Part shown: piece after piece, positions 2,869 through 27,120 of the stretch | Layout: each line of letters opens with the position of its first letter | Position numbering within the stretch: the first letter of the stretch is position 1 | Notes under the pieces: model-generated | Database searches by the model: none | Seen by the model: only the letters and a program-made list of their open reading frames with translations | What the model was told of the DNA's origin: nothing | Position numbers and translations under genes: made by a program | Assembly: GCA_021604505.1 (NCBI GenBank) | Contig: BQJC01000001.1 | Coordinates: 768,218-832,217 of the forward strand | Source of the DNA: Nitrospinaceae bacterium | GTDB lineage: Bacteria; Nitrospinota; Nitrospinia; Nitrospinales; VA-1 | Direction of reading: 5' to 3' | DNA length: 64,000 nucleotides

Positions 2869-4178
2869 CCTAAAACCTGCTGTTCCGAAACGTCTTCAAT
2901 TTTTACCGGAACCAGTTGGTTCATCAGGCGGTCGCCTCCGGGAACCGAGACCGGGATGTAGTGTTCCGTGTGGCCTTTCAGATTCCCCGTCGCGGAGTCT
3001 CGCTGGTTCTCGAACAGCACGGTGACGGTCTCGCCTTTGAGCTGGCGGCGAAAGCGGATGGATTTTTCATGCGCCATGTCGGTCAGGATTTTATTGCGTT
3101 CTTTTTTCACGGTTTTAGGGAGGTTGCTTTTAAAGCCGTAGGCCTCGGTACCCTTGCGCGGCGAATAGGCGAACGCGTGCAGGTAGGTGAACGGCAGACT
3201 TTCGATGAGTTTTCGAGTGTTTTCAAAACGTTCGTCCGTTTCGCCGGGGAATCCAATAATGATATCCGCTCCCAGGCCCAACCGCGGAATTTTCTCCAGC
3301 GCCCGATGCACGGTGTCTAGATATTGCCCAGAAGTGTAGTTTCGCCGCATTTTGGCGAGAATATCATCGTCACCGCTTTGCAGGGGGATGTGCAGGTGCG
3401 GGCAGATTTTCTCTTCATCGGCGATCAGTTGTATCAGGTCGTCGTCGATTTCCATGGGGTTGATGGAACTCAAACGGATGCGAAAGTCACCGGGCAGGCG
3501 GACGATCTCGCGCACCAGTGAGGAAAACGTTTCCGGGTTTTCCTTTTCCATGCCGTAGGTGCCGAGGTTGATGCCGGTGAGGGTGATTTCCTTGAAGCCG
3601 GAATCGATGGCTTCTTTAACGTTGTTGAGGATGTTTTCCCGCTCATCGCTGATCGACTTGCCCCGCGCCCGGACAACGGTGCAGAAGGCGCATTTTTCGT
3701 CGCACCCGGTCTGCACCTTGATGAAGGCTTTGGTTTTTCCCTGAAACTTTGACACCGGGATGGTGCGGAACACTCTTTTTTTGTGAATGTCCGACATGAA
3801 GATTTCCGCTTTATCTTCTTTATTCCAGGGCGTCTCTGGGTTGAGCTTTTCCTTGATGACCCTGGCGATGTCCAGCTTGTTAGCATTGCCCAGCACGATA
3901 TCCAGACCCTGAATCTCAGCCGCTTCGTCGGGGGCCAGTTGCGCGTAACAACCCGTGAAAACCACCAGCGCCTGATCGTTGATGGCCAGCGATTTTTTCA
4001 CCGCCAGGCGCGAGCTGTAATCGCTGCGTTGCGTCACCGAACAGGTGTTGATCACGTAAACATCCGCCAGCTCTCTGGAGTCGACGATGGAAAACCCTTC
4101 CTGTTCCATCAGGGTTTGCATCTCCGCTGTGTCGTGTTGGTTGGTCCGGCAACCCAGAGTGGCGAAAGCGACTTTCAT
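2853..4178 (-). CDS. mtaB: MiaB-family radical-SAM methylthiotransferase, MtaB-like
   Basis: Has the N-terminal UPF0004 domain (TLGCRTNQ.D), the radical-SAM motif CDEKCAFC and a C-terminal TRAM-like region. Confidence 0.75.
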   Translation of the reverse strand: MKVAFATLGCRTNQHDTAEMQTLMEQEGFSIVDSRELADVYVINTCSVTQRSDYSSRLAVKKSLAINDQALVVFTGCYAQLAPDEAAEIQGLDIVLGNANKLDIARVIKEKLNPETPWNKEDKAEIFMSDIHKKRVFRTIPVSKFQGKTKAFIKVQTGCDEKCAFCTVVRARGKSISDERENILNNVKEAIDSGFKEITLTGINLGTYGMEKENPETFSSLVREIVRLPGDFRIRLSSINPMEIDDDLIQLIADEEKICPHLHIPLQSGDDDILAKMRRNYTSGQYLDTVHRALEKIPRLGLGADIIIGFPGETDERFENTRKLIESLPFTYLHAFAYSPRKGTEAYGFKSNLPKTVKKERNKILTDMAHEKSIRFRRQLKGETVTVLFENQRDSATGNLKGHTEHYIPVSVPGGDRLMNQLVPVKIEDVSEQQVLGCLPS

Positions 4179-4328
4179 AGCACTGTTATTTGAAGGTTTA
4201 TGATGGAAAACATTTTAGAACAAACAAATTATCATCTTAGAACAAGCATTTCTACAGAATCAACTCGAATTTCCCGCACGATGAAAATAAAACACCTTCC
4301 CTGCATTATTTCACAACAAAGCAAACGC

Positions 4329-4445: not shown

Positions 4446-4712
4446 ATGCAAAGCGTTAGCCGAAAAACAAGATCTTTCCTGGAGAAGTGGCTGGACATGA
4501 CGGTCAAGGACTATGTCAAGCACATGCGTAAAGATCAGGACGGTGATTTGTACGATCTCATCGTCGGTGGAGTCGAAAAACCCCTGATTGATATTGTGCT
4601 TAAGGAAACCAATGGCAATCAGACACACGCCGCCAATATTTTAGGAATCAACCGCAACACCTTACGCAAGAAAATCACCGATTTTAAAATCAAATGCCCC
4701 AAAAAAGTCTAG
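4446..4712 (+). CDS. Fis-family DNA-binding protein (HTH_8)
   Basis: The C-terminal sequence GNQTHAANILGINRNTLRKKI matches the Fis HTH, and the protein is small (88 aa). Confidence 0.75.
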   Translation: MQSVSRKTRSFLEKWLDMTVKDYVKHMRKDQDGDLYDLIVGGVEKPLIDIVLKETNGNQTHAANILGINRNTLRKKITDFKIKCPKKV

Positions 4713-5452
4713 CCGTCATCATTCTGGCCGCCGGGAAGGGGACCCGGATGAAATCCCCGCTTGCCAAAGTCCTGCAACCGTTGTCCGGGCGTCCACTCTT
4801 ATATTATGTCCTGGAGATCGTCAAACAGCTGAGTGCTGACCGGGTGAGCGTGGTGGTCGGGTTTCAATCCAAGGAGGTGAAAACTGCCTTTTCCGATCCC
4901 GGAATCGAGTTTGTTGAGCAAAAAGAACAACTTGGGACCGGCCATGCGGCCCAGCAAACCGAATCCTGTCTCGCTGATTTTTCCGGCGATATCCTTGTTT
5001 TGTGCGGCGACATGCCCTTGATCAAAGCCTCCACCTTAAAGAATCTGCTCAAAAAACACCGGGAGAGCGGGGCCTCCTGTACCCTGTTGACTCTGAAAGA
5101 TAACCAGGGAAAAATCAAGGATTTTGGCCGAATCATTCGGGATAAAGACCAATCGATCGTCCGGATTGTCGAAAACAAGGACGCCACACCCGCTGAGAAA
5201 AAGGTTGACGAATACAATTCCGGCGTTTATTGTTTTGATAAGAGCTTATTTTATAAAGCTTTACTTGCGGTCGACAACCGCAACTCGCAAAAAGAGTATT
5301 ACCTGACGGATACCATCCGTTTTTTTGTCGAAAACCAATACTCCGTCCAGTCGGTTCAAACTGAAGATTCCGACGAGATTTTCGGGATCAATTCTCCAGA
5401 AGACTTGCAGAAAGCGGAACAGTTATTAAGGGAAGGGGATGCTTCCCTTTAA
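4694..5452 (+). CDS. GlmU N-terminal-type sugar-1-phosphate uridylyltransferase, with no acetyltransferase domain
   Basis: Contains LAAGKGTRM, LGTGHA, CGDMPLI and EYYLTD motifs. The ORF ends at 252 aa, before any hexapeptide repeats. Confidence 0.75.
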   Translation: MPQKSLAVIILAAGKGTRMKSPLAKVLQPLSGRPLLYYVLEIVKQLSADRVSVVVGFQSKEVKTAFSDPGIEFVEQKEQLGTGHAAQQTESCLADFSGDILVLCGDMPLIKASTLKNLLKKHRESGASCTLLTLKDNQGKIKDFGRIIRDKDQSIVRIVENKDATPAEKKVDEYNSGVYCFDKSLFYKALLAVDNRNSQKEYYLTDTIRFFVENQYSVQSVQTEDSDEIFGINSPEDLQKAEQLLREGDASL

Positions 5453-6713: not shown

Positions 6714-8534
6714 ATGTGTGGAATCAGCGGCGTAGTCGGTTTAAACAATATTTCTGATGAGTTGTACCAGGGAATCCGCAATCTGGAATACCGCGGCTAT
6801 GATTCCTGTGGTGTGGCCTTGATGAACAAGACTTCCTTGATCATCAAGAAAAACATCGGCGGCGTGGAAGAGTTTTTCCGCAAGGAAAATGTTTTATCCA
6901 TATCCAGTAAAATCGGCATTGCACACACCCGCTGGGCGACCCATGGCACCGTCACCAAAAACAACACCCATCCCTTCACTTCCTGCGACGGCAGCTTTGC
7001 TGTAGTGCACAACGGCATCATATCCAATTTCCGCCCATTAAAGGACAAGTTGATCCGCGAGGGCCACGAATTTGAATCCGATACCGATTCGGAAGTGATT
7101 CCGCATTTATTGGAAAAATATTACAAGCAAACCAAGAACCTGGAGAAAACCCTTCTCAAGGTTCTCAATGTTTTAGAAGGGACCTTTGCTCTGGCCTTCA
7201 TTTCTTCCAAGGCTCCCGGTCAGATATATTGCGCCAAACGTGAATCGCCCCTCATGCTCGGAATCGGGGACGAAACCAAGTACGTCGGCTCCGATTTCAA
7301 TGCCTTCATCGACCAAACCAAAAACGCCATCATCATAGATGACGGAGAATACGCAATCATCTCCCGGGACAGCTATGTGATCAAGGACTCGGTGACCGGG
7401 CAGGAGATCCAGAAAAACATCACTAAAATCGACTGGGACAGCGAAACTTCCAAAAAAGGCGGGTATCCCCACTACATGCTCAAGGAGATTTACGAACAGC
7501 CGCAGGTAGTGACCAATGCCTTGGAACAGGACACCGATTCGTTAGATGAACTGGCGGAGATGGTTTTTCAAAGTGAGAAGACCCAGCTGGTCGGGGTTGG
7601 GACCACCTTTTATGTCGCTTCCTATGGAAATTATATTTTTTCATCATTGGCGGGGGAGTTTTGTCCGCCCATCAGTTCGGACGAGTTCCCATCCCTTGCG
7701 AACGTGGATAAAAAAAGTCTGGTGATTGCCTTGTCCCAATCGGGAGAAACGTACGACACCCTGCATGCCCTCAAGTTTGCCAGGTCCAAGGGGGCCAAAA
7801 CAGCCGCCATCGTCAATGTGATGGGGTCTTCCATTTCCAGGTTCGTCGACAAAGCCATTCTTCAAGGCTCGGGTCCGGAAATTTGTGTGATCAGTACCAA
7901 AGCGGCGTTGTCGCAGATGCTGATTTTGACGTTGGTCGCCTTGCGGGTGGGGGTGAAAAAAAAGGTCCTGACCAAAAAGGAATTTACAAAATCCATGGCC
8001 GCTTTGGGCGAACTTCCCGGAATCATTCAGAGCATACTCAACGAACGCTCCGGGTTCATTCACCGCATCGCTCACAAATATTGTAAAACCAGACACTGGC
8101 TTTATCTCGGGCGCGGCATCTATTACCCGATCGCTTTGGAGTCCGCTTTAAAGATGAAGGAAGTGGCTTATGTTCACGCCGAGGGAATGCCGGGCGGATT
8201 TCTCAAACATGGAACCCTGGCGATGATCGATAAGGATATTTTTTCGATCGTCTTCATCCCTCCCAGGGAAGACAAGAAGCTCTATGAAGCCACCATTCAC
8301 AGTGTCGATGAGATACGCGCCCGTTCGGGATTTGTTCTGGGGATTCATTTCGACGAACGCGGAAAGAACAAGGATCTCTTCAGTGAGGAACTGATTCTAC
8401 CCAGTGTCCCGCCGTTGATTGCGCCGCTCATCCAAATGGTGATCGGGCAATTATTTTCTTATTTTACCGCCACCAGCCTCAAACGCAATGTGGACAAGCC
8501 CCGGTCCCTGGCAAAGTCGGTGACGGTCGGCTGA
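6714..8534 (+). CDS. glmS: Glutamine--fructose-6-phosphate aminotransferase
   Basis: Starts with the MCGI catalytic Cys N-terminus, has tandem SIS domains, and is 606 aa long. Confidence 0.95.
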   Translation: MCGISGVVGLNNISDELYQGIRNLEYRGYDSCGVALMNKTSLIIKKNIGGVEEFFRKENVLSISSKIGIAHTRWATHGTVTKNNTHPFTSCDGSFAVVHNGIISNFRPLKDKLIREGHEFESDTDSEVIPHLLEKYYKQTKNLEKTLLKVLNVLEGTFALAFISSKAPGQIYCAKRESPLMLGIGDETKYVGSDFNAFIDQTKNAIIIDDGEYAIISRDSYVIKDSVTGQEIQKNITKIDWDSETSKKGGYPHYMLKEIYEQPQVVTNALEQDTDSLDELAEMVFQSEKTQLVGVGTTFYVASYGNYIFSSLAGEFCPPISSDEFPSLANVDKKSLVIALSQSGETYDTLHALKFARSKGAKTAAIVNVMGSSISRFVDKAILQGSGPEICVISTKAALSQMLILTLVALRVGVKKKVLTKKEFTKSMAALGELPGIIQSILNERSGFIHRIAHKYCKTRHWLYLGRGIYYPIALESALKMKEVAYVHAEGMPGGFLKHGTLAMIDKDIFSIVFIPPREDKKLYEATIHSVDEIRARSGFVLGIHFDERGKNKDLFSEELILPSVPPLIAPLIQMVIGQLFSYFTATSLKRNVDKPRSLAKSVTVG

Positions 8535-8659
8535 TCGTTTACAGGTTTTTCCCTTCAACGCCCTATCCCCTGAAGCCAACCAATAAAGGGTTGCGAACGA
8601 TAATCCCCGTCTGTTAGAGTTCTCCTTTCCTGTCATCTTCATAAAAAGAAAATAAAACC

Positions 8660-10006
8660 ATGAATACAGTTCCAACTGCTTTAACCATTGCCGGGTCGGA
8701 CCCAAGCGGCGGGGCCGGAATACAGGCTGATCTTAAGACCTTTGCCGCGTTTAAAACTTTTGGCCAATCGGTCATCAGCTCTCTCACGATTCAAAATACA
8801 TTGGGTGTGCAAGGCACGTTCGATATTCCTGCCGACACGGTAGCGCAGCAGTTGAAAGCTTTGCTGGACGATAAAAAACCGCTTGCCGTGAAGACCGGCA
8901 TGTTGGGAAACGAAGCCGTGGTCGAATGTGTTGCCCGCCAAATCAAACGGGCACGAATCAAAAAACTGGTGGTCGATCCGGTGATTCGCTCATCCAGCGG
9001 AAAAACGCTTCTATCCAAACGCGGCGTTCAGGCGCTTAAGGATAACCTTTTACCCCTGGCTTTGGTGGTCACCCCAAATATAAAGGAAGCGGAAATCCTT
9101 TCCGGTGTACGAATAGCTCAGCCTTCCGACCGGTTGAAAGCCGCCCGCGCCATTTTAAAAACCGGAGTCAAAAGTGTTTTGATCACCGGCGGGCACCTGA
9201 AGGGAAACCCGGAAGACTTTTTTTATGACGGCGGGCGTCCCGTGAAACTTGTTGCCGAACGTTTGACCCGTGAAGATTTGCACGGCACCGGCTGTGTTTT
9301 TTCTGCGGCGGTCACAGCCGGGCTGGCACTGGGGAAGCCTTTGGCTCTCGTACTGTCGGAGGCCAAAGAGTTCATGAGGCAGGCGATTTTAGGCGGCGTT
9401 CGATCTGGGGAAGGGCAGGGCAGTGTGGAGCCACTCCATCCTCTATATCAAAATGAAGAGCGGTGGGATATTTTTCAACGCGTGTCACGCGCCGCGGAAG
9501 TTTTAAAAGAAGAAAAAATCGGCCACCTCGTTCCGGAAGTGCAGTCCAATCTGGGGATGGGGCTGACAGGAGCTAAAGAACATCAGGACGTGATCGGCTT
9601 TCCTGGACGAATCGTGAAATACGGACAAGATATCGTGACCCTTTCACCGCCGCAGTTTGGAGGTTCCAGGCATGTCGCCAATATTGTTTTGACTGCCATG
9701 CGCTACGATCCCGCCAAGCGCGCCGTGATGAATATCAAGTACACCCCCGAACTCATGAAAATATGCAAGCGGCTTAAGTTCAAGACGGCCACTTTCAACC
9801 GTGCGGATGAGCCAAAGCAGGTGAGGCACAAAGAAGGGTCATCGCTTGAATGGGGAACCGACACGGCGATCCGCAAAACCGGATTTGTTCCCGACATCAT
9901 TTATGACATCGGCGGGATGGGAAAGGAAGAGATGATCCGCGTGATCAGCGAAGACGTGGAATCTCTGGTCGACAAGGTTTTAAAAATTCACTGGCTGAGT
10001 AAATAA
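8660..10006 (+). CDS. thiD: Hydroxymethylpyrimidine/phosphomethylpyrimidine kinase fused to a ThiN-type thiamine-phosphate synthase domain (ThiDN)
   Basis: The N-terminal [18 protein letters not shown] motif is ThiD. The C-terminal ~180 aa, with VPEVQSNLG...GFPGRIV, resembles ThiN. Confidence 0.85.
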
Positions 10007-10027: not shown

Positions 10028-11959
10028 TTACAGCAGAGTTTGATCGATCAACACATTGGATTTTTCCCTCAGGTTTTTGATCCAGTCATTGAAAGCCGTC
10101 GTAGATTTTTGCCTTTTCAGGCGGGCGGTGATGGTTTTGATCTGTTCCTCGGTGGGTTCGCCTGCAAGCTTACGGTCCTGAACCCGGAACAGGTAGTGTT
10201 TTCTGAAAGCCGAGGCGGAGGCCGCCTGTCCTTTTTCCAGAGAAAACGCCTTGTCCTTGATATTTTGAAAATCTCCAATGCCGGGAATGGAATCCACACG
10301 GCTGAAAAACGGAGTGTGCCTGATTATCATGTCCATTTCCTTGGCGATTTTATCGAGGTCGCTCCCACTGATGAGTTTTGCGGACAGAGCTTTAAATTTT
10401 TTCTCAGTGAACTCCTGATCGGCTTTCTTTTGGGCCGCTGCTTTGACTTCTTCCCGAATCGCGTCGAGTTCAGGGATGAAGGCCGGTTTTCTTTCTTTTA
10501 TCCTAAGAATAAAAGAAGCTTCAAACGTATTGATCGGTTCGCTGACCTGCCCGTCCGCCAGGGCGAAGGCGGTGTTGAAAAACTCGGGAACCATGCCGAT
10601 ATCTGAAATGTCGTGTTTCTTTCGACTGAAAAAGTCCGATGTTTTCACTTCGACTTTTTGATCGGCCGCGGCCTGGGAAAAATCGCTTCCCTTTTCGTTA
10701 GCTTTGTAAATCCGTTTGACGATGCGGCGCGCCTTTTGCCGCGATTTAGTTTCCTTGATTCCCTTAATCACTTCTTCTTTCACCTCGGAAAGCGGTTTGG
10801 TTCTGGCTTCCTGTTTTTCATCGAGGCGGATAATATGGTAGCCAAAGGGGGATTTGACCGGTTCGCTGATTTCTCCTATCTTCAGTTTTTCCAAGGCATC
10901 ATCAAACTCAGGAACCATGGTGCCGCGGTCAAATTCTCCGAGACTCCCTCCGTTGCTGGCCGAAGAAGGGTCGTCGGATAAATCTTTGGCGGTTTTTGCG
11001 AAGTCCGCGCCTTCGCGGATTTTTTTCAATGCCTGCTCGGCTTCGGTTTTGGCCGCTTCCTCGGATGCTTTTTGCCTGTCTTCTTCGCTGGCGGCTTCGT
11101 CAACTTGGGAAGGTTCCAATTGGAAAAGAATGTGGCTGGCCTTGTACTTTTTTTTCACTCGAAAATCGCCGAGTTTTGTTTCATAATATTCCTGCAGATC
11201 TTCTTCGGTGGGTTCTATTGCGTTCTCAAAGTTTTTTGGGCTCACCTTGACGTATTCAACCCGGACCTGGTCGGGAACCTCAAATTGCGTTTTGTTCTTT
11301 TCGAAAAATTTCTTCAGGTCTTCCTCATTGACAGGTTGAGTGTCCTTAAACTGGTCTTCTGAAAAAGCAAGGTAGTCCAGTTTGACCGCTTCGTTTTCAC
11401 TATGGAATGCTTCGGTGACCTCGCTGTTTGAAACCAGCGTGTTGGAAGTGATCATTTTCTCAAGCTTCTGAATCGTCAGCGCTTCCCGTTGGCTTTCTTC
11501 AAAATCCAGGTGAGACAATCGATTGAATTTGAGATAGTTATCGTAAAAGCTTTTGTTGAACACCTTGTCTTTCTGAAAGGCTGGAAAGCTTTGAATATGG
11601 TCGACCAGTTCCTCATCGCTTACCCGGATGTTGAGGTTGTCAGCTTCAAGGAGCAGGAGTTTTCGTTGAATGAGCGCATCGAGCGCCTGGGTTTTCAGAT
11701 CCAGCCGTTGAACCAGATCTTCCGAAAACTGGCTTTTGAACTGCTCGCGGTAAAAATTGACTAAATTGTTGAAGGTTTTATCGTATTCACTGTGCTGGAT
11801 GTCGATGCCTTCCACCGTGGCAACCACTCCTCCACGCGAGCCGGTGGAGCCGCCCATTCCCCATGAGTAAAAAATGGTGCCGACAAAGGCAAAGATTATC
11901 AGCCATAAAATGGTCTTGATCATCCAGGAATTGGCGTGTTGCCGGATAAGATTGAGCAT
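10028..11959 (-). CDS. ppiD: Periplasmic chaperone / peptidyl-prolyl isomerase, PpiD-like
   Basis: Has an N-terminal TM anchor, a SurA_N-like region and a parvulin domain (HILF...GGSLGEF..G.MV.EFD...G.HII). Confidence 0.8.
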   Translation of the reverse strand: MLNLIRQHANSWMIKTILWLIIFAFVGTIFYSWGMGGSTGSRGGVVATVEGIDIQHSEYDKTFNNLVNFYREQFKSQFSEDLVQRLDLKTQALDALIQRKLLLLEADNLNIRVSDEELVDHIQSFPAFQKDKVFNKSFYDNYLKFNRLSHLDFEESQREALTIQKLEKMITSNTLVSNSEVTEAFHSENEAVKLDYLAFSEDQFKDTQPVNEEDLKKFFEKNKTQFEVPDQVRVEYVKVSPKNFENAIEPTEEDLQEYYETKLGDFRVKKKYKASHILFQLEPSQVDEAASEEDRQKASEEAAKTEAEQALKKIREGADFAKTAKDLSDDPSSASNGGSLGEFDRGTMVPEFDDALEKLKIGEISEPVKSPFGYHIIRLDEKQEARTKPLSEVKEEVIKGIKETKSRQKARRIVKRIYKANEKGSDFSQAAADQKVEVKTSDFFSRKKHDISDIGMVPEFFNTAFALADGQVSEPINTFEASFILRIKERKPAFIPELDAIREEVKAAAQKKADQEFTEKKFKALSAKLISGSDLDKIAKEMDMIIRHTPFFSRVDSIPGIGDFQNIKDKAFSLEKGQAASASAFRKHYLFRVQDRKLAGEPTEEQIKTITARLKRQKSTTAFNDWIKNLREKSNVLIDQTLL

Positions 11960-14697: not shown

Positions 14698-16610
14698 GTG
14701 TATTTCGCTATAGCGCGGATGTTTCGGAAACCGTCCGGGGAAAAATCAAGATATTTGTGGTGCTGGTCATCATTGCCTTTTTATGTCTGTGGATGCGGAT
14801 TTGGTACCTGCAGATATTAAAGGGGGCGTACTTTCAGGCCAAATCCGAAAACAACCGCGTCCGGTTGACTGCCCTTCCTGCTTACCGGGGAACCATCAAG
14901 GACCGCAACGAAGAAACCCTCGTCAGCATCCGCCCGTCCTTCAATCTTTACGTCACACCGGAAGACGCGCAAAATCTACCCGAAACGCTGAAATGGTTGC
15001 AGGAAATCATTGAATTCGACAAAGATCAGGTGTTCCAACGGATCAAGGAAACGCCGCCTTTCAAACAGGTATTGATCAAAAGAGACATCGACCGCAAGCA
15101 GGTTGCCATTGTGGAAGAGAGCAAGATGCGGCTCCCAGGCATCGACATCAAAGTCGAGCCTCTTAGAAGCTACGTTTATGGCGACATGGCGACCCACGTT
15201 CTGGGGTATTTGGGAGAGATATCCAAGACCAAACTCGAAAGCCTGAACGACCCCAGCTTTGAGCAGGGAGACTTCATAGGCAAGAACGGATTGGAAATTA
15301 TTTATGAAACCATGTTGCGCGGCAAGAAGGGGTACAAGGAAGTAGAAGTCGATGTTTCCGGCCGCGAACTGCAAACCCTGAGAAAGCTTCCGCCCAAAAG
15401 CGGCAACACCCTGGTTCTGACGCTGGACCTTCGCGTGCAGAAAGTTTTGGAAGAAGTCATGACCGGAACGCCGGAGGATCCCATTTCCGGGTCCGTCGTG
15501 GCGATGAAAGTCCACACCGGCGAGATCATCGCCATCGCCAGCAAACCCTCCTTTGACTCCAACCTGTTCGCCGCGGGAATTTCCAGGGACAACTGGAAGA
15601 CGCTTGTGGAAGATGAACTCCATCCCCTGCAACACCGGACCATCAGCGGTCAATATCCCCCAGGCTCGACCTACAAAATCGTCACCGCCCTCGCGGGACT
15701 GGAAGAAAACATCGTCACACCCGAAACGACCTTTTACTGCCCAGGCCATTTTCGATTGGGACGGGGGAAGTACCGTTGCTGGAAACGCGGCGGGCACGGC
15801 ACCGTGGATCTTCATAAAGCCCTCGTGCAATCCTGCGACGTGTATTTTTATACCGTCGGCAACCGGCTGGGCATCGACAAACTGCACGAATACGCCAGAA
15901 TGCTCGGCCTGGGCGAATACACCGGAATCCAGTTGATGGGAGAAAAACGCGGGATCAACCCCAGCACAAAATGGAAACTCGCCAGCCGCAACGAACCCTG
16001 GTTGTTGGGCGAGACCATTTCCGCCTCCATCGGTCAGGGCTACAACCTGGTGACCCCCCTTCAGCAGGCGAAAATGATGGCCACCGTCGCCAATGGAGGC
16101 GTGGCGCTGAAACCCTATCTGGTGAAAAAAATCATCGACCCCGATGGCAAAACCATCAAGGAATTTCATGCCAAAGTAGAAAACAAAATCAAAGTGCATC
16201 CCGAATACCTGGAGCTCGTGAAAAAAGCTCTGTTGGGCGTGGTGAATGAGCCCAGGGGAACGGGCCGCCGGTCGCGCCTCAAAGACATCCAAGTGTCGGG
16301 AAAAACCGGAACCGCCCAGGTGGTCAAACTAAAAGTCACCGAAGACATCGAAGATGAAGATAAAATTCCCTACCACTTTCGCGACCACGCCTGGTTCGTG
16401 GCGTTCGCCCCCTATGAAAAACCGGAAATCGCGGTAGCGGTTTTAGTCGAACACGGAGGTCATGGCGGGGCCAGCGCGGCGCCCGTGGCAAAAAAAGTGA
16501 TGGAGGCCTACTTCAAACATTACCCGCCGTATGAATTGCTGGAAAAAGCCGAATCCATTGCAAATGGAGTGCAAGAGGTGGAAAAGGAAGAAAAGCCGTC
16601 CAACCCTTAA
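14694..16610 (+). CDS. mrdA: Penicillin-binding protein 2 (elongasome transpeptidase)
   Basis: Contains a PBP dimerisation domain and the transpeptidase motifs STYK, SCD and KTGTA. Confidence 0.92.
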   Translation: MSVFRYSADVSETVRGKIKIFVVLVIIAFLCLWMRIWYLQILKGAYFQAKSENNRVRLTALPAYRGTIKDRNEETLVSIRPSFNLYVTPEDAQNLPETLKWLQEIIEFDKDQVFQRIKETPPFKQVLIKRDIDRKQVAIVEESKMRLPGIDIKVEPLRSYVYGDMATHVLGYLGEISKTKLESLNDPSFEQGDFIGKNGLEIIYETMLRGKKGYKEVEVDVSGRELQTLRKLPPKSGNTLVLTLDLRVQKVLEEVMTGTPEDPISGSVVAMKVHTGEIIAIASKPSFDSNLFAAGISRDNWKTLVEDELHPLQHRTISGQYPPGSTYKIVTALAGLEENIVTPETTFYCPGHFRLGRGKYRCWKRGGHGTVDLHKALVQSCDVYFYTVGNRLGIDKLHEYARMLGLGEYTGIQLMGEKRGINPSTKWKLASRNEPWLLGETISASIGQGYNLVTPLQQAKMMATVANGGVALKPYLVKKIIDPDGKTIKEFHAKVENKIKVHPEYLELVKKALLGVVNEPRGTGRRSRLKDIQVSGKTGTAQVVKLKVTEDIEDEDKIPYHFRDHAWFVAFAPYEKPEIAVAVLVEHGGHGGASAAPVAKKVMEAYFKHYPPYELLEKAESIANGVQEVEKEEKPSNP

Positions 16611-17176
16611 CGGACGAAAATGTCCACGCTCGCCGCATTTTCGTGGCCGGATTCCAGAAGACGGTAGAGCAATCGGTAAGAGCCGCTTCTGACAAAACCC
16701 AACCGGATACTTTTATTATGCGGGAGTTTTTTCAACGAGAAAACTTCCTCGTTGCTGTCCACATGGCATAACGAAATATCCTGCAGAGAATCCTCGTGGT
16801 CATTTTTTAGAATGACGCCGGATTTGGGGGACACGAAAACAGGAGCCGGATGTTGACTAGCGTGTTTCATGTAAATGGTGGTGGACTTGAACCCGGTACC
16901 CCGGTTCAGATTGAACTTCCCCGTCCAGGGATGTTCCCAATAACTGAATTCAATAAACCGTTCATTGATGAACTGAGCAAAAACCCGGTTTTCGATCTGC
17001 CGTTCGGGGTCTTTCAAAAGTCGATTCACGTTAACACGCATTGAGGTTAATGAGGCACGTTCAATGTAAAACGAAGCGCTGGCGGCGGCAATCAGCATAA
17101 TTCCTAAAAAAAGTGTAGGAAAATTCCTAATAGGCCGGAAAAAAGTTGTGCGGGGCGGAGGGCTAACCCCCCTCAA
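16607..17176 (-). CDS. Hypothetical membrane-anchored protein (189 aa), no recognisable family
   Basis: A single N-terminal TM segment (FPTLFLGIMLIAAASASFYI) and a probable TTG start. Its stop codon overlaps the mrdA stop within the sequence TTAA. Confidence 0.5.
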   Translation of the reverse strand: MRGVSPPPRTTFFRPIRNFPTLFLGIMLIAAASASFYIERASLTSMRVNVNRLLKDPERQIENRVFAQFINERFIEFSYWEHPWTGKFNLNRGTGFKSTTIYMKHASQHPAPVFVSPKSGVILKNDHEDSLQDISLCHVDSNEEVFSLKKLPHNKSIRLGFVRSGSYRLLYRLLESGHENAASVDIFVR

Positions 17177-17178
17177 TT

Positions 17179-17292
17179 GCAGAAAAAGGGATGGAAGCGT
17201 ATTTTAACCATTGCCCGCCGTTTGAATCGGTGGAAACAGCCGAGACAAAAAACGCGCCCGTTCCTGCCGATGAGGGAAGTGAACCGCAGTAG
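17179..17292 (+). pseudogene. Displaced, diverged copy of the mrdA 3' end (encodes AEKGMEAYFNHCPPFESVETAET... followed by a stop)
   Basis: By manual alignment, 54 of 69 nt match mrdA 16488-16556. The frame is kept through to a stop at a similar distance. Confidence 0.6.
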
Positions 17293-17368
17293 TTTTCCTG
17301 TGCTTAGGCCCGAGAATGGAAAGGGTGGCGGCAAGATTTCCACGCGTTAAATAAAAGTAAATTTGTTT

Positions 17369-18460
17369 TCAGACCAATTTTAACTTTAGAAAGTCCTTAT
17401 CTTTCTTTTTAGATTCTTCTAATTGTTTAGGCAAACCAACTAAGCCAAATACAAGATTTTCAATTTCATAAACTGGAATATTTAATTGAGAAGCAATATC
17501 TTTTTTTGTGATTCGATCATTCCATAAATCTGTAAAAACCTTTTTCCATACGGTAGAAATTTCTCGCTCTATTTCATTGGGTTCTTTTGTTCGATATCCA
17601 TAACTACTTAGTTGAATACACAAGGTACGATAATTTCTTTCAGAAATGATTCCAAGTTTTTTCAACCTATATGTAAGGGCCATAACTGATACCCGCCATC
17701 TTTTCTTTGCATAAATCAATTGATCAATCGAAGTAATACAGGGAATTTTTGCAAGAATATCTGCTTCAGGCATGAGGAATGATGAAGCAAAATCATTTGC
17801 TTCAATTTCGACCTGCCTTCCTTGTTTAGGCCCCCCGTGCTTATGTAAAACTAAATGCCCTAACTCATGCGCGGCGTCAAAACGACTATGCTCCGCAGTT
17901 TTAAAAGTATTTAAAAAAACAAATGGAACATTTTTTTCCCAACAAGAAAACGCATCTACATTTTTTGTGTTTTCTGACAAGGAGAATACCCGCAGTCCTT
18001 TGGATTCTAAAAGCTGAACCATATTTCCAATTGGTTGCTCACCCAAGCACCAATGTTGTCGTAAAATTCTGGCAGCTACAGCTGGTTCACTTTCTTGCCC
18101 TAAATCCAATAGGTCAGGCTTCGGTAGCTCAAAACGTTCAGACACCCAATCCGAAAGTAAATATGCTAGTGACCCAGCTGCTAAAGCCGCATCTCTCTCT
18201 TTAGCGGTCATTGCAACCATACTTCTAAAACTGGCTGAGTCCTTATCTAACTCATCTAAATCATTTCCAAAAAAAAAGTCCTTAGGATATCTGAGGGCAG
18301 TAGCAATTTTTTCTATTGTTTCCTTTTTGGGAATATTATCTCCTCTTTCGATTCTGGTTATTTGAACCGGAGTTACTCCCACTAACTCTGCAAGAGCTTT
18401 ACTCGTTAGCCTACATCTCTTCCTTATCAGGCTGAATCTTTTATGGTTAAACATAGACAT
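17369..18460 (-). CDS. Fused XRE-family HTH / ImmA-IrrE (M78, COG2856) metallopeptidase
   Basis: The N-terminal HTH reads LTSKALAELVGVTPVQITRIERG, and the zinc motif is HELGH followed by E..NDFASSFLMP. I chose the ATG at 18460, which lies 1 nt after the upstream gene's stop. Confidence 0.85.
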   Translation of the reverse strand: MSMFNHKRFSLIRKRCRLTSKALAELVGVTPVQITRIERGDNIPKKETIEKIATALRYPKDFFFGNDLDELDKDSASFRSMVAMTAKERDAALAAGSLAYLLSDWVSERFELPKPDLLDLGQESEPAVAARILRQHWCLGEQPIGNMVQLLESKGLRVFSLSENTKNVDAFSCWEKNVPFVFLNTFKTAEHSRFDAAHELGHLVLHKHGGPKQGRQVEIEANDFASSFLMPEADILAKIPCITSIDQLIYAKKRWRVSVMALTYRLKKLGIISERNYRTLCIQLSSYGYRTKEPNEIEREISTVWKKVFTDLWNDRITKKDIASQLNIPVYEIENLVFGLVGLPKQLEESKKKDKDFLKLKLV

Positions 18461-18461
18461 C

Positions 18462-19106
18462 CTATTTTCGTGCAATATTAACTTCAAATTCCTTAAAATC
18501 ACCATCATCACCATCATCAAAATTTGACAATGAAAATTCAGGAAGATCTCCATCTCCATCTTGTAGGAGAAAAATTCTTTCTAAAAATCCAGAGAACTGA
18601 CCACAATCAACTGATTTCGGCAGGGACAACTCTGCTGAAATAATACCTTGATTTTCAGATACGCACAGATACCAAGCTGAAGTTTTATTTGCAGGCATTG
18701 CTCGATTTATTTCCTCCTCAGAAAATAAAATCCCTTGATTGTTAGAGACAGTCCGCTCAGACCCTGGACCTTTTTTTGACCTGGCTCTTGGTTCCCAATT
18801 CTTTTCGGATGCACGATCAACATTCTGAAAAATAATTTTTATTGTTGCTATAGAATTTACTATTCCCTCTACAGAATCTTTTCTATTGATTTGCCACCCT
18901 TGGGAACGAAGGATTTCCCTCAGAGACCTTGTTCCCGCAAAATATGCTAACGACCCTGGGGCATTTGCTGCATCATTATCGGTACAACTATTTCGAGCTA
19001 ATACAGCATCGTGGATTACCTTAATAAGATCGGAACGAACTAAACCCATTTTCTTCAATTTTTTACCAACTTCATCACTATCTTCTAATATCCTTGCCAG
19101 TTCCAT
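18462..19106 (-). CDS. Hypothetical protein (214 aa) with an acidic D/G-rich C-terminal tail; no family recognised
   Basis: An intact ORF with RBS GAGGTG upstream, tightly coupled to the ImmA-like gene. The sequence is AT-rich. Confidence 0.65.
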   Translation of the reverse strand: MELARILEDSDEVGKKLKKMGLVRSDLIKVIHDAVLARNSCTDNDAANAPGSLAYFAGTRSLREILRSQGWQINRKDSVEGIVNSIATIKIIFQNVDRASEKNWEPRARSKKGPGSERTVSNNQGILFSEEEINRAMPANKTSAWYLCVSENQGIISAELSLPKSVDCGQFSGFLERIFLLQDGDGDLPEFSLSNFDDGDDGDFKEFEVNIARK

Positions 19107-19135
19107 AAGACACCTCGTACGTTAATATTCGTGTG

Positions 19136-19164
19136 AATTTTTACATAAAAAATTAACATGGTCA
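19136..19164 (-). promoter_or_regulatory. Candidate promoter of the two-gene cassette
   Basis: On the minus strand: TTGACC (19164-19159), a 17-nt spacer ending in TGT, then AAAAAT (19141-19136). Confidence 0.3.
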
Positions 19165-19225
19165 AGAGATTCATGGTAATTTTTTCGTCATATCGAAACA
19201 GGTGGGAGGGATATAGGTTCTTCCA

Positions 19226-19348
19226 TCAAGCAGAAATCATCAGATCTTTATCGTGTAAACGCTTGATGCGGTCGCGGAGTTCGGCGGCTTTTTCAAACTC
19301 CAGATTTTTGGCCGCCGCGAACATTTGTTTCTCCAGCCGCGCAATCAA
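19226..19348 (-). pseudogene. Displaced duplicate of the uvrB 3' end (last 40 codons plus stop)
   Basis: Encodes [40 protein letters not shown] followed by a stop. It differs from uvrB 20203-20325 at 14 of 123 nt, mostly at synonymous sites. Confidence 0.85.
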
Positions 19349-19424
19349 AGAAAATCATCCACAAATAATCCAATGTGAGGATTGATGATTTTCGTTTTCG
19401 TCTTTTCTTTGAAATTGGCGGGTC

Positions 19425-19754
19425 TCAAGCCAATACAACGTCTTGGGGAGATTCCCCTTTTCTTCGACGGGTGACCTGAACCCTTACCTTTCGATCCAGC
19501 TTATTCAAAAATGCAAACAACCGTTCCTGGGAGAACAGTGTGTAGCGACCGTTCATCAGGTTCGATACTTCCGGTTGCTTGATCTCCAGGAGTTTGCCGA
19601 TCTCTCGTTGCTTGAGTTTTTTCTTTTCAAGGATCATCCGCACGGAATGACCGAGTTTGGCCCGTATTAAAAGTTCTTCGGAATCATCCAGTCCCAAATC
19701 TTCAAACACATTTCCAGAACTTTCTTCAAAGGCTATTTTTTCATTTTTCTTCAT
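19425..19754 (-). CDS. higA: XRE-family HTH antitoxin (HigA-like)
   Basis: Contains the HTH LKQREIGKLLEIKQPEVSNLMNG. It overlaps the upstream toxin gene by 4 nt. Confidence 0.85.
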   Translation of the reverse strand: MKKNEKIAFEESSGNVFEDLGLDDSEELLIRAKLGHSVRMILEKKKLKQREIGKLLEIKQPEVSNLMNGRYTLFSQERLFAFLNKLDRKVRVQVTRRRKGESPQDVVLA

Positions 19755-20113
19755 GATTGTTTTTCCTTTTCTATTGCCACGGCTTCCTTATAACGCCGAG
19801 CGATCATTTCGATATCCAGCTTGGCTGTTTTTCGGCCCTTGGGAGCTTTCTTCTGAAATGCATGCAGAACGTAAACCCGTTTGCCAATCTGCACCGCGTA
19901 AACTGTGCGGTAGGTGTTGGTTTCGAAGCGGGTGACGATTTCCAGGACTCCGCTGGCCACGCCCTTAAACGGCTTGGCTTGCGGAGGTTTTGTCCCTTTT
20001 TGAACGTCAAAAAGCGCGGCTCCAATGTCCTGCCGCGCTTCCCGTGGAAACGATTGAACCTGTTTTCGCGCATCTCCCACCCATACCACGGGTTTCAGAT
20101 TGTCTTCATCCAT
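19751..20113 (-). CDS. higB: RelE/ParE-superfamily toxin, Gp49/HigB-like (DUF891)
   Basis: Matches the pattern KPVVWVG...FP...R..IG..L..VQ.G..P...KP...V..GV.EI......YR.VY......VYVLHAFQKK. Confidence 0.8.
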   Translation of the reverse strand: MDEDNLKPVVWVGDARKQVQSFPREARQDIGAALFDVQKGTKPPQAKPFKGVASGVLEIVTRFETNTYRTVYAVQIGKRVYVLHAFQKKAPKGRKTAKLDIEMIARRYKEAVAIEKEKQS

Positions 20114-20123
20114 ACTGCCTTTT

Positions 20124-20152
20124 ATGATATAAGTATTTACTTATATTTTCAA
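20124..20152 (-). promoter_or_regulatory. higBA promoter with an embedded perfect palindromic operator
   Basis: On the minus strand: TTGAAA (20152-20147), a 17-nt spacer, then TATCAT (20129-20124). The region 20127-20146 is ATATAAGTA-aa-TACTTATAT. Confidence 0.5.
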
Positions 20153-20202
20153 GAAATATATTTTAACTTTCCTGGCGGCTTTGCATGAGGAAAGGTTTTA
20201 AC

Positions 20203-22194
20203 TCAAGCCGAGATCATCAGATCTTTGTCACGCAGGCGTTTGATCCGGTCGCGGAGTTCGGCGGCTTTTTCAAACTCCAGGTTCTTGGCCGCCGCGAACA
20301 TTTGTTTTTCCAGCCGCGAAATCAATTGATGGACGTTGCCGGTGTTGTTGTATTCCTCTTCCTCTTCGGCCACCAGCGGCACGACGGCAAATTTCTCTGC
20401 CTGGCTCAGGGATTCGCCCACGGATTTTACGATCGACGCGGGGGTGATGTTGTGTTTCTCGTTGTATTCCAGTTGAATCGTTCGCCGTCGGTTCATCTCG
20501 GTGATCGCCGCCTGCATGGAGCGGGTCACCGTGTCGGCGTACATGATGACTTTGCCCTCGACATGACGGGCCGCGCGGCCCGACGTTTGAATCAGCGAGG
20601 TCGTGGAACGCAAAAATCCCTCCTTGTCCGCATCGAGAATGGCGACGAGGGTCACTTCCGGAATGTCCAACCCTTCGCGCAACAGGTTGATGCCGATCAA
20701 GGCGTCGAATTCCCCGAGACGCAGTTCGCGGATGATCTGGCTCCGCTCCAGGGTCACGATGTCGGAATGCAGGTATTTCACCTTCAGCCCCAGTTCGGAA
20801 TAATGTTCCGTCAAGTCCTCCGAAAACCGTTTGGTGAGCGTGGTGATCAGAATGCGTTCCTCTTTTTCTGCCCGTTTTAATATCTCATGGTGCAGGTCGT
20901 CCACCTGGCCTTTGACCGGTTTTATCTCGACTTCGGGATCGACCAGCCCGGTCGGGCGCACGATCAATTCCACCACCTTGCCGTCTGACTTTTCGATTTC
21001 ATAAGGCCCCGGCGTCGCGGACACATAGATCACCTGGTTGACGTGCTCCTGGAATTCATGAAATTGCAGGGGCCGGTTGTCGAACGCCGAAGGCAGGCGG
21101 AATCCGTAGCGCACGAGGGTTTCCTTGCGCGAGCGGTCGCCCTTGTACATGCCCTGCAATTGCGGCAGGGTGACGTGGCTCTCGTCGATGACGAACAGCG
21201 AGTCGTCGGGAAAATAGTCCAGAAGCGTGGGCGGCGGTTCGCCTGCCGGGCGGTCCATCAGGTGGCGCGAGTAATTCTCGATGCCCTGGCAATAGCCCAC
21301 CTCCTTGATCATTTCCAGATCGAACATCGTCCGCTGATCGATGCGTTGCGCCTCGACCAGCAGGTTCTGGCTTTCAAAATAGTGCACGCGCTCTATGAGT
21401 TCCTCGCGGATGGCGGCAATGGCCTTGTTCAGCAGTTCCTTGGGGGTCGCGTAATGACTGGCCGGGTAAATGGCGATGCGGTCCAGATCGCGGATGCCTT
21501 TGCCCGTTAATGGGTCGAAAGCCTGAATGCGGTCGATCTGGTCGCCAAAAAACTCGATGCGCACGGCTTCGTTGCGTTCGTAGACCGGCAGCACTTCCAC
21601 CACATCGCCGCGCACCCGGAACGTGCCGCGCTGGAAGTCGATATCGTTGCGCTTGTACTGGATGTCCACCAGCTTTTTCAACACCTGTTCCCGGTCGATG
21701 GTCATGCCCCGTTCGGCAAACACCAGCATGCCGTGATAGGCTTCCGGCGATCCCAGTCCGTAGATGCAGGAGACGCTGGCGACGATCACCACATCCCGCC
21801 GTTCAAACAGCGAATGCGTGGCGGCGTGGCGCATTTTGTCGATTTCATCGTTGATGGAGGCGTCTTTTTCGATGTACGTGTCGGTATTGGCGAGATACGC
21901 TTCCGGTTGATAGTAATCGTAATAACTGACAAAATAGCCCACCGCGTTTTCCGGGAAAAAGGCTTTGAATTCGCTGTACAATTGCGCCGCCAGGGTTTTG
22001 TTATGCGCCAGGACCAGCGTCGGTTTTTGAATCTCCTGAATGACGTTGGCGATGGTGTAGGTTTTCCCGGACCCGGTCACCCCCAGAAGCGTTTGCCGGG
22101 GGGTCGCGGAATCGCAGTTTTTCACCAGTTGTTCGATGGCTTTGGGTTGATCGCCGGCAGGCTGGAACTCGGCGTGCAATTTGAACGGGGTCAT
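20203..22194 (-). CDS. uvrB: Excinuclease ABC subunit B
   Basis: Contains GVTGSGKT, helicase motifs, and a C-terminal UVR domain ([13 protein letters not shown]). Length 663 aa. Confidence 0.97.
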
Positions 22195-25005: not shown

Positions 25006-27120
25006 ATGGAACATGTGATGGGGAAAAGCGGATCTCAAACCCCTTTTATTTTTCGGATTTTTAAGAATGGGGGCAACGGTAAAACCAATCCCAGGGAACT
25101 TCAGAGCAAGATAGATGCGATCGATAAATCCCAGGCCGTGATCGAGTTTAATATGGACGGCACGATCATCACCGCCAACGAAAATTTTTTAAACGTGGTG
25201 GGTTATTCTCTGGAAGAGATCAAGGGCCAGCATCACCGCATGTTCTGTGAACCCTCCTACGCGAACAGCCCAGCCTACAGGGCGTTCTGGGAAAAGCTGA
25301 ACCGCGGAGAATACGATACCGGAGAATACAGGAGGTTGGGCAAAGGCGGTGTGGAAGCCTGGATTCAAGCATCTTATAATCCCATCATGGACTCTAAAGG
25401 CAGACCCTATAAGGTGGTGAAGTTCGCCAGCAATGTGACCCAGCAAAAACTGATGAACGCCGAGTATCAGGGAAAGGTGGACGCCATTGGGAAAGCCCAG
25501 GCCGTGATCGAGTTTAATATGGACGGCACGATCATCACCGCCAACGAAAACTTTTTAAACGTGGTGGGTTATTCTCTGGAAGAGATCAAGGGCCAGCATC
25601 ACCGCATGTTCTGTGAACCCTCCTACGCCAACAGCCAGGAATACAAGGCGTTCTGGGAGAAACTGAACCGTGGAGAATACGATACGGGGGAATACAGGAG
25701 GTTGGGCAAGGGCGGTGCGGAAGCCTGGATTCAGGCGACTTACAATCCGATTATGGACATGAACGGCAAACCCTTTAAGGTGGTGAAATTTGCCAGCAAT
25801 GTGACCCAGCAAAAACTGATGAACGCCGAGTATCAGGGAAAGGTGGACGCCATTGGGAAAGCCCAGGCCGTGATCGAGTTTAATATGGACGGCACGATCA
25901 TCACCGCCAACGAGAATTTTTTAAATGTGGTGGGTTATTCTCTGGAAGAGATCAAGGGCCAGCATCACCGCATGTTTTGTGAGCCGGACTACGCCAACAG
26001 CCAGGAATACAAGGCGTTCTGGGAGAAACTGAACCGTGGAGAATACGATACGGGGGAATACAGGAGGTTGGGCAAGGGCGGTGCGGAAGCCTGGATTCAG
26101 GCGTCCTATAACCCGATTATAGACATGAACGGCAAACCCTTTAAAGTGGTCAAATTTGCGACGAACATCAGTGAAAAAGTCCAAAAAGTGGCTCAAATCC
26201 TGGAAGTTGTCAATGCCGCCAGCGAAGGGGATTTGACCCGGGAGTTAAAAGTAGCCGGCACCGATGATGCGGGTCAGATTGGAGAAGGGTTGTCTAAACT
26301 CCTCGCCAATTTGAAAAAAATGATTGTCAGCTTTGCAACTCAATCCGATTCTCTGGCATCCTCTTCGGAAGAGTTGACAGCGGTCAGTCAGCAAATGGCG
26401 GGGAACGCGGAGGAGACAGCGGCGCAATCGGGTGTGGTGTCCGCCGCTTCCGAGCAGGTCAGTAAGAACGTGCAGACCGTGGCCACCGGCGCCGAGGAAA
26501 TGAGTGCCAGCATTAAGGAGATTGCGCAGAATGCCAGTGAAGCGTCGCGCGTAGCCAGTGAAGCGGTAAAAGTGGCGGAAACAACGAATGCAACCATCAG
26601 CAAACTGGGCGAGAGTTCGGCGGAGATCGGGCAGGTGGTCAAGGTCATCACATCCATCGCGGAGCAGACCAATCTTCTGGCGTTGAACGCCACGATTGAA
26701 GCGGCGAGAGCGGGCGAAGCCGGTAAAGGATTTGCGGTGGTGGCCAACGAGGTGAAGGACCTGGCCAATCAGACGGCCAAGGCGACGGAGGAGATCAGCG
26801 GCAAGATCAGCGCCATTCAGTCCGACACGCAGAACTCGGTCACCGCGATTGCAGAGATATCCGAGGTGATCAACAAGATCAACGATATTTCCAACACCAT
26901 AGCCAGCGCCGTTGAAGAGCAGACAGCGACCACAGCTGAAATCGGCCGCAATGTGTCTGAGGCCGCAAGAGGCACATCGGAAATCGCGCAAAATATCACG
27001 GGGGTGGCGCAAGCGGCGGAAAGCACGACCCAGGGCGCAACCGATACGCAATCAGCTTCCCGCGAGCTTTCGAAAATGGCATCGGAACTGCAAAATTTGA
27101 TCAGTCAGTTTAAAGTTTAA
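25006..27120 (+). CDS. Soluble methyl-accepting chemotaxis protein with three tandem PAS domains
   Basis: No TM segment is present. There are three PAS modules, then a HAMP-like linker, then the MCP signalling domain ([28 protein letters not shown]). Confidence 0.9.
25111..26170 (+). repeat. Intragenic tandem repeat, about 2.9 copies of 366 bp (one PAS module per copy)
   Basis: The string GCCGTGATCGAGTTTAATATGGACGGC recurs at 25134, 25500 and 25866. Units 2 and 3 are about 94% identical by manual count. Confidence 0.9.

Follow-up and report, generated by a model that had tools for sequence, protein, structure and literature searches.

The DNA analysed here, called the window throughout, is a stretch of 64,000 nucleotides (nt) of contig BQJC01000001.1, taken from a metagenome-assembled genome (MAG) of a Nitrospinaceae bacterium. 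Our subject is a small type II toxin-antitoxin module, higBA, which lies directly downstream of uvrB and is bracketed by two copies of the uvrB 3′ end. The features of this unit, in the order in which they are read, are as follows.

20203..22194, minus strand: uvrB, intact, 663 amino acids (aa); open reading frame (ORF) with the Pfam domains UvrB_inter, UvrB, Helicase_C and UVR
20203..20325, minus strand: copy A, the in-gene uvrB 3′ end, 40 codons plus TGA (the last 123 nt of uvrB); repeat search and alignment
20114..20202, minus strand: spacer between the uvrB stop and higB, with a predicted promoter and a candidate operator; promoter scan and palindrome
19751..20113, minus strand: higB, toxin of 120 aa, Gp49/HigB, RelE/ParE superfamily; Pfam PF05973, 2.4e-20, above the curated cut-off
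19425..19754, minus strand: higA, antitoxin of 109 aa, HTH_37/XRE; Pfam PF13744, 3.7e-21
19349..19424, minus strand: spacer 3′ of higA, 76 nt, ending at the sole novel joint, where TTTTCT meets TTGATT; alignment
19226..19348, minus strand: copy B (uvrB′), a displaced uvrB 3′ fragment, in frame with a stop and lacking an upstream uvrB body; repeat search, alignment and substitution counts

The uvrB repeat and the cassette that it encloses

A repeat search of the window returned a direct repeat of 123 nt at 19226-19348 and 20203-20325, with a start-to-start spacing of 977 nt. When the copies are aligned by codon they are 88.6% identical; the 14 differing nt are spread across 12 codons, 10 of which are synonymous, and the two replacements are S>A at codon 3 and R>H at codon 32. 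Both copies are in frame and terminate with TGA, and the homology has sharp borders, formed by the TGA and, at the opposite edge, by TTGATT, with a 35-nt identical run in the middle. A BLAST search within the whole 64-kb window gave an E-value of 3e-39 for the pair, which is the only such bracketing pair in the window at E<=1e-4. An earlier note on this DNA had described the same-strand, in-frame recurrence of the uvrB end and counted its differences; its coordinates were reproduced exactly and our codon alignment gave the same counts. The window UvrB is 100% identical to an NCBI Nitrospinaceae MAG protein, and an exact look-up of it found no contig with the same protein.

Sequencing reads contain the joint. 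A Logan unitig built with k=31 (L001, run DRR328264, which is probably from the same DDBJ project as the MAG) matches window positions 19274-20275 at 100%. It begins and ends inside the shared core and spans the novel joint from the spacer downstream of higA to the TTGATT edge of copy B. The 25-nt overlap between its ends equals 2(k-1)-35, which would be expected of a unitig bounded by a 35-nt repeat. Because the joint is contained in L001, it is unlikely to be a chimera of two ordinary strain variants. As a side observation, in each of the Logan contigs L001 and L091 the first 23-25 nt recur as the last, which an identical core of 35-37 nt in flanking repeats would lead one to expect.

The 854-nt insert (roughly 0.85 kb) holds no genes other than higB and higA. 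The toxin gene is first in the operon and higA follows directly, with a 4-nt overlap. A sigma-70-like promoter is predicted at 20152-20124 on the minus strand (-35 at 20152-20147, -10 at 20129-20124, 10/12 matches); an 18-nt palindrome at 20128-20145, the operator candidate, overlaps it, and both are kept in the cassette copies found at other loci. With its toxin-first operon, Gp49/HigB toxin, HTH antitoxin, overlapping genes and promoter palindrome the module resembles other higBA type II modules; it is itself ordinary, and its flanks are the unusual part. We found no integrase or recombinase ORF between or beside the uvrB-end copies by ORF and Pfam analysis, the neighbors being a RosmerTA pair and uvrB. 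On both counts, a cassette of higB and higA alone with its own promoter and operator and the lack of an integrase, the earlier note had read the locus correctly.

Signatures of known small mobile units were also sought. Neither of the attC cores RYYYAAC and GTTRRRY occurs in 19200-20350, and the two ends of the insert share no inverted match of more than 6 nt, with no inverted pair at the borders. The unit thus does not qualify as an integron gene cassette (no attC cores, no integrase) or as a transposon, insertion sequence or miniature inverted-repeat transposable element (no terminal inverted repeats). An AT-rich hairpin in the 76-nt spacer downstream of higA is weak and folds no better than shuffled sequences (z = -0.74), an Rfam search of 17000-20500 returned nothing credible, and neither viral contigs nor plasmids, when searched, yielded a carrier of the higBA cassette. 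Self-ligation of a restriction fragment was considered as the origin of the joint, on account of a CAATTG site beside copy A, and was rejected as a misfit to the junction sequence.

Substitution pattern of the two copies

Comparison of copies A and B by the Nei-Gojobori method gives Sd=12 and Nd=2, with dS=0.67, dN=0.022 and dN/dS=0.033. We simulated null models fixed at 14 nt differences and scored the trials in which the frame stayed intact, no stop codon arose and <=2 amino acids differed. When one copy was kept under constraint and the other evolved neutrally, the observed pattern arose with P about 5e-4; with fully neutral divergence it arose in 0/100,000 trials (P<1e-5). A local tandem duplication of the uvrB end, followed by divergence in place and an independent insertion of higBA between the copies, would be the simplest origin for a direct repeat, and these values leave it next to no chance. 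Since decay in place is rejected, the two copies appear to have been, until recently, the ends of functional uvrB genes in different Nitrospinaceae lineages; both 40-residue peptides match the C-termini of related UvrB proteins. The earlier note had argued from the silent changes that local duplication with decay does not fit and that both copies had evolved as functional termini in different lineages, and the simulations, the dN/dS value and the peptide matches bear it out.

The same arrangement in a second lineage

In a contig from another Nitrospinaceae lineage (L093), homology to the window runs unbroken from uvrB through the spacer into higBA. The degree of divergence differs sharply along this stretch, as given here for window versus L093.

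uvrB body: 76-80% nt identity, dS 1.05
uvrB-higB spacer: 83% nt identity, dS not applicable
higB: 94.8% nt identity, dS 0.18
higA: 93.6% nt identity, dS 0.31

Because dS is 0.18-0.31 for higBA and 1.05 for uvrB, the cassette appears to have been passed between the lineages, at this one site, more recently than their split. In L119, which is closely related to L093 (higBA 96.9% identical), a 93-nt uvrB′ fragment lies 3′ of higA. This fragment is 93.5% identical to the in-gene uvrB end of L093, and 5/6 of the differences are synonymous (manual count from the alignment). The first 24 nt of the spacer downstream of higA are common to the window and L119 and are followed by an 82-nt indel across the joint, so the joint of L119 lies at a different position; the gene downstream in L119 is unrelated to rmrT, which occupies that place in the window. 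The layout uvrB-higBA-uvrB′ thus occurs in two lineages between which synonymous divergence of uvrB has reached saturation, and each uvrB′ pseudo-copy is closest to the uvrB end of its own lineage. Judged from these comparisons, the cassette would be recent in at least one of the two. The earlier note had proposed that one copy arrived together with the toxin-antitoxin cargo, either by recombination with DNA from a relative or as an element whose attachment region mimics the uvrB end; the contrast in dS favors the first route, and the second found no support.

higBA-family cassettes at other loci

Our search returned 901 HigB homologues, the closest of which lie mostly on contigs of 0.7-1.5 kb, an expected symptom of repeat-flanked units. 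Among these contigs, two from sister samples (L117 and L118) show two different upstream contexts for one cassette. Where the context could be evaluated, 7/9 higBA-family loci, including the two uvrB cases, lie between direct repeats that consist of local sequence, are 26-175 nt long and show 84-95% identity, and these bracketed contexts span five different kinds of site. The loci other than uvrB are listed below.

L090: 5′ end of a DJ-1/PfpI gene repeated, 76 nt, 94.7% identity
L096: 5′ end of a DJ-1/PfpI gene repeated, 83 nt, 90.4% identity
L095: intergenic sequence between sulfatase genes repeated, 175 nt, 85.7% identity
L097: local repeat flanking higBA, 70 nt, 84% identity
L116: repeat downstream of a degP-like gene, 26 nt, 92% identity (BLAST)

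No repeats bracket higBA in L098 or in L092/L094. In the uvrB and DJ-1/PfpI cases one side of the cassette is in natural continuity with the neighboring gene and the other side has a single novel joint. None of the bracketed family members has identical repeats, all being diverged, and no recombinase was found near any of the related higBA loci. A control set of unrelated loci, 1.43 Mb in all, yielded only 4 repeat pairs of a comparable kind. Since the repeats that bracket the family are of differing local sequence, it appears to lack a fixed uvrB-like attachment (att) site. The suggestion of the earlier note that the unit is the scar of a 3′-end-targeting integrative element finds no support in this comparison, in which the flanking repeats are specific to each locus and recombinase, attC core and terminal inverted repeats are all missing.

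One of the 4 control pairs has the same architecture and comes from an archaeon, a Candidatus Methanoperedens MAG (L050). There, the 3′-terminal 205 nt of a glutamyl-tRNA synthetase gene occur twice, at 3290-3494 and 4687-4891 and with 95% identity, on either side of a VapBC pair (PIN domain, 2.3e-15), and the homology stops just past the stop codon; the codon differences are 5 synonymous and 4 conservative. This archaeal pair suggests that the process by which cassettes become bracketed is widespread and under-described.

Two further repeats were seen in passing. In an Acutalibacteraceae MAG (L079), a 249-nt direct repeat (8575-8823 and 10028-10276, 97.6% identity) brackets a 173-aa ORF that has no Pfam match, the second copy of the repeat being located within the 5′ end of uvrB. 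In L090, the Nitrospinota contig that also carries a bracketed higBA, a 95-aa GIY-YIG ORF lies between 115-nt direct repeats at 4100-4214 and 4499-4604 (80% identity); part of the repeat recurs a third time at 7523-7563, which speaks for a dispersed intergenic repeat and against a target duplication.

The uvrB-mrdA spot in related genomes

The relatives L084-L087 share the gene order TraB-uvrB-[variable]-hypothetical-mrdA-mreDCB. In L084 only about 550 nt separate uvrB from the hypothetical gene, and in L085-L087 the variable spot holds an island with AIPR and MJ0711_N, around which no uvrB-end repeat was found. Across three related UvrB clusters, 7/7 loci lack higBA and have a single uvrB end; with no more than about 83% nt identity they are not conspecific with the window, and the nearest uvrB genes are only 83-84% identical in nt to that of the window. 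A scan of genome contigs with UvrB listed matches from distant genomes throughout (<=67% identity). Among the matches listed, 0/80 unrelated uvrB loci have a uvrB-end duplication, and neither such a duplication nor an integrase island at the uvrB spot was found in any of the 87 other uvrB loci. Second UVR-motif matches downstream of uvrB in five listed loci were rejected as duplications, all five being uvrC.

Two of these relatives offer a natural comparison. The flanks of L085 and L086 are 99.8% identical, and the two differ by a 626-bp unit that in L086 is flanked by 224-nt direct repeats of 90.6% identity (L086 16420-17269 versus L085 16420-16643). The repeats cover the 3′ ends at which the hypothetical gene and mrdA converge. 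Between the repeats lies a cargo of 402 nt with one 50-aa ORF and no Pfam or Rfam match. The single-copy allele of L085 is a mosaic, its left part like copy 1 and its right part like copy 2, from which it appears that the 626-bp unit was exchanged by one reciprocal event inside the 224-nt repeat. Homology flanks the exchange point on both sides and is not needed to repair either gene; as far as these alignments allow, the exchange would fit recombination through homology and not an att site like that of e14.

In the window, the spot holds in order higBA, uvrB′, a RosmerTA pair and a scar of mrdA. The features beyond copy B are listed here.

17369..19106, minus strand: RosmerTA-type two-gene module, AT-rich (GC about 0.37), directly downstream of copy B; composition, Pfam and PADLOC
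18462-19106, minus strand: rmrT; PADLOC RmrT 2.4e-45
17369 to about 18460, minus strand: rmrA, with HTH_3 and Peptidase_M78; Pfam, and PADLOC RmrA 5.2e-157
17179..17292, plus strand: mrdA′ fragment, a diverged mrdA 3′ end, in frame to its own stop (AEKGMEAYFNHCPPFESVETAETKNAPVPADEGSEPQ*); local repeat search
16607-17176, minus strand: conserved hypothetical gene, convergent with mrdA; ORF and synteny with L084-L087
14694-16610, plus strand: mrdA; ORF and synteny with L084-L087

The mrdA′ fragment sits beyond the convergent hypothetical gene, on its far side from mrdA. Over 65 nt its identity to 16488-16552 is 81.5%; 8 of the codon differences are replacements and 4 are synonymous, and for that reason the scar is either older than the uvrB scar or derived from a more distant allele. 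Taken together, the gap between uvrB and mrdA looks like a small hotspot of defence and toxin-antitoxin genes that carries gene-end scars from both bordering core genes. Elsewhere in the window, 25101-26159 contains three tandem copies of a 366-nt unit (86-92% identical) inside a 704-aa ORF (25006-27120); this is a repeat-domain protein and is unrelated.

Proposed acquisition by homologous recombination

The duplication with its signature of purifying selection, the horizontal exchange at the same locus, the recurrent bracketing by local sequence and the absence of a recombinase are established by the comparisons above. To explain them we favor, at a little better than an even chance, acquisition of the higBA cassette from a diverged relative through homology, by a Campbell-type integration or a looped double crossover. 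A cassette of about 0.85 kb without a mobility gene would enter the uvrB 3′ end by homologous recombination, the donor being a diverged Nitrospinaceae lineage that already had higBA just downstream of its uvrB. The inserted DNA would be a circular permutation of the donor segment, consisting of the right part of the uvrB end, the spacer, higBA, the second spacer and the left part of the uvrB end. This could come about by a single reciprocal crossover of the Campbell type between a circle and the resident uvrB end, or by pairing of a linear donor segment (uvrB end, higBA, uvrB end) with the single resident end, which would loop the 977-nt unit out. By either route uvrB would stay intact, a 3′ fragment would be displaced, and the copies would be the alleles of donor and recipient, which is why they would differ almost only at synonymous positions. 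We infer that the joint was made by RecA-type homologous recombination, and not by an unknown enzyme acting in trans, with the crossover inside the 35-nt identical core. From the post-segregational killing known of toxin-antitoxin modules, addiction would be expected to select against the loop-out of a repeat-flanked unit that is otherwise unstable.

In Campbell integration, a circle that carries a piece of the chromosome recombines with the chromosome, so that the cargo comes to lie between two hybrid copies, and the reverse crossover loops it out again. The process is known from the laboratory or as borne by plasmids and phages (F-prime, specialised transducing phage). Its product matches the mosaic in L085/L086; unlike the textbook cases, no replicon or vector is visible here, and the homology is only 26-224 nt long and 5-16% diverged.

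Several points weigh against acquisition by homologous recombination. Recombination across tracts of 26-175 nt that are 84-95% identical is inefficient, and the 26 nt repeated in L116 are a short stretch for RecA. Among the matches listed there was no conspecific empty site, and the donor and resident halves of copies A and B are not directly readable. L093 and L119 leave only four informative sites to the left of the core for placing the crossover; in a manual reading against L093, the right part of copy A is L093-like at nearly all variable sites and the left part of copy B at 3/4, which are few sites. A clean pair of empty and occupied alleles is available only for the neighboring 626-bp unit and not for higBA, and as proof of insertion the L085/L086 pair had to be rejected, being equally compatible with excision. 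Unitig L001 fits an integrated unit and a free circle beside a single-copy chromosome alike. Finally, the model leaves the first circle or duplication at each new locus unexplained.

Comparison with known systems

Restriction-modification gene complexes are reported to have been described by Nobusato et al. in 2000 (Gene 259:99) as undergoing insertion with long target duplication. Such insertions, with repeats of 46-423 bp, were documented for restriction-modification modules without mobility genes, and were tentatively tied by the authors to DNA breakage by the cargo, the mechanism being left unresolved (Furuta, Abe and Kobayashi 2010, PMC2853133). A 2013 review lists the phenomenon for restriction-modification systems only (PMC3874152), and our literature search found no paper that describes it for type II toxin-antitoxin loci. 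The likeness to our unit is extensive: a small addiction-type module without transposase or integrase lies between direct repeats of local target sequence of about 50-400 bp, and the repeats vary in length and often overlap gene 3′ ends. Related genomes are single-copy in the published cases; here the seven related loci with one uvrB end, at about 83% nt identity, would be a loose counterpart. Unlike those cases, the cargo here is a type II toxin-antitoxin module and not a DNA-cutting system; RelE/ParE-like HigB toxins cleave mRNA and not DNA, so the double-strand-break property proposed for restriction-modification cannot be invoked. Of the defining features used by Furuta et al. 2010, we find both module genes inside an insert of 854 nt (the limit being <20 kb), no other mobility gene and a direct repeat of 123 nt (>30 bp); the repeat copies are not near-identical (88.6%, dS 0.67, dN/dS 0.03). 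The repeats of the whole family are 84-95% identical as against mostly 93-100% in the published cases, and at uvrB, where nearly all differences are synonymous, they represent alleles from separate lineages and were not newly copied from the target. The uvrB-higBA unit is thus a variant of insertion with long target duplication, and what is new in it is the non-cutting cargo and the repeats made of diverged alleles.

A true duplication of the 123-nt target appears to us an unlikely origin. In that account an unknown mechanism would have inserted higBA and duplicated the target, functional uvrB including copy A would afterwards have been replaced by another allele, and copy B would be the fossil of the older one. 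Besides the precedent of the restriction-modification modules, it has to its credit that the replacement needs only recombination between lineages and yields differences that are synonymous only, and that the two replacements in copy B, including an R>H that is absent from all 24 related UvrB proteins retrieved, could be slight neutral decay. It requires two events where one suffices, however, and the cassette and the uvrB-higB spacer have themselves been exchanged between lineages. The uniform divergence of the bracketing repeats, none of which is an identical pair, is moreover unexpected for fresh duplications; most published restriction-modification pairs are nearly identical (PMC2853133).

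We regard it as quite improbable that the unit is a remnant or non-autonomous site-specific element of the type of e14 or phage 21 at icd, with an attP that carries a substitute uvrB 3′ end and an integrase that is lost or acts in trans. In E. coli, e14 and phage 21 integrate into the icd 3′ end and leave an icdC pseudo 3′ end, according to the account of Hill, Gray and Brody 1989 that is given in PMC13626634. The layout is the same as that of icd/icdC: the frame of the core gene is kept by an incoming substitute 3′ end, a displaced in-frame 3′ fragment remains at the far side, the differences between the ends are conservative, and recombination between the ends removes the insert (PMC13626634). 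The sharp left edge at TTGATT and the 35-nt identical core would also suit such an element. Both the substitute and the displaced in-frame 3′ ends are therefore present at uvrB, but an integrase beside the att site and a shared att specificity are not. The prophage-like e14, 15 kb long, brings a site-specific recombination system of its own and uses a fixed att within icd, whereas the unit here is 0.85 kb, has no recombinase in or near it or at any related locus, and has relatives at unrelated sites. The family repeats are locus-specific, extend to a gene 5′ end and to intergenic DNA, and reveal no conserved att. In L086 the homology lies on both sides of the exchange point and is not required to restore either gene, and, among the matches listed, the 87 other uvrB loci again offer neither a uvrB-end duplication nor an integrase island.

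We hold it to be very improbable that the layout is an artefact, in which the assembler would have fused two strain variants into a chimera or merged a free 977-bp circle with a single-copy uvrB end. The source is a MAG, short k-mers cannot phase the 35-nt identical core, and the Logan unitig is compatible with either a circular or an integrated form and probably stems from the same project. Against this, two ordinary variants cannot produce a joint between the spacer and a 5′-truncated uvrB end, which is present in read-derived k-mers, and the same layout was assembled independently in other projects and lineages (L093 and L119, L090 and L096, L095, L097, L116). A free circle would still mean the same biology.

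Implications

Toxin-antitoxin loci are among the most horizontally mobile genes, usually without a mobility gene, and the movement of their chromosomal copies is poorly explained. For restriction-modification systems, insertion with long target duplication has been on record since 2000 and still lacks a mechanism. The substitution pattern at uvrB, the second lineage and the other loci point to host homologous recombination on borrowed gene-end homology, and not to cutting by the cargo, and the substitution pattern turns an old observation that had no mechanism into a testable model. Units of this kind also have practical consequences, since they break short-read assemblies (most close HigB homologues sit on the short contigs described above), create spurious 40-aa ORFs and leave datable fossils of donor and recipient alleles.

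More generally, and as a tentative proposal that we consider possible rather than probable, addiction modules, meaning toxin-antitoxin and by extension restriction-modification systems, may spread between diverged lineages without a mobility enzyme by carrying, and regenerating at their far side with every transfer, a copy of a conserved host gene end. Homologous recombination of the host would insert them, and post-segregational killing would block their loop-out. If this is true, such a module would be flanked on both sides by core-gene homology even amid hypervariable neighboring DNA, and acquisition through a borrowed gene end would give bacteria and archaea alike a general way of moving genes without an integrase.

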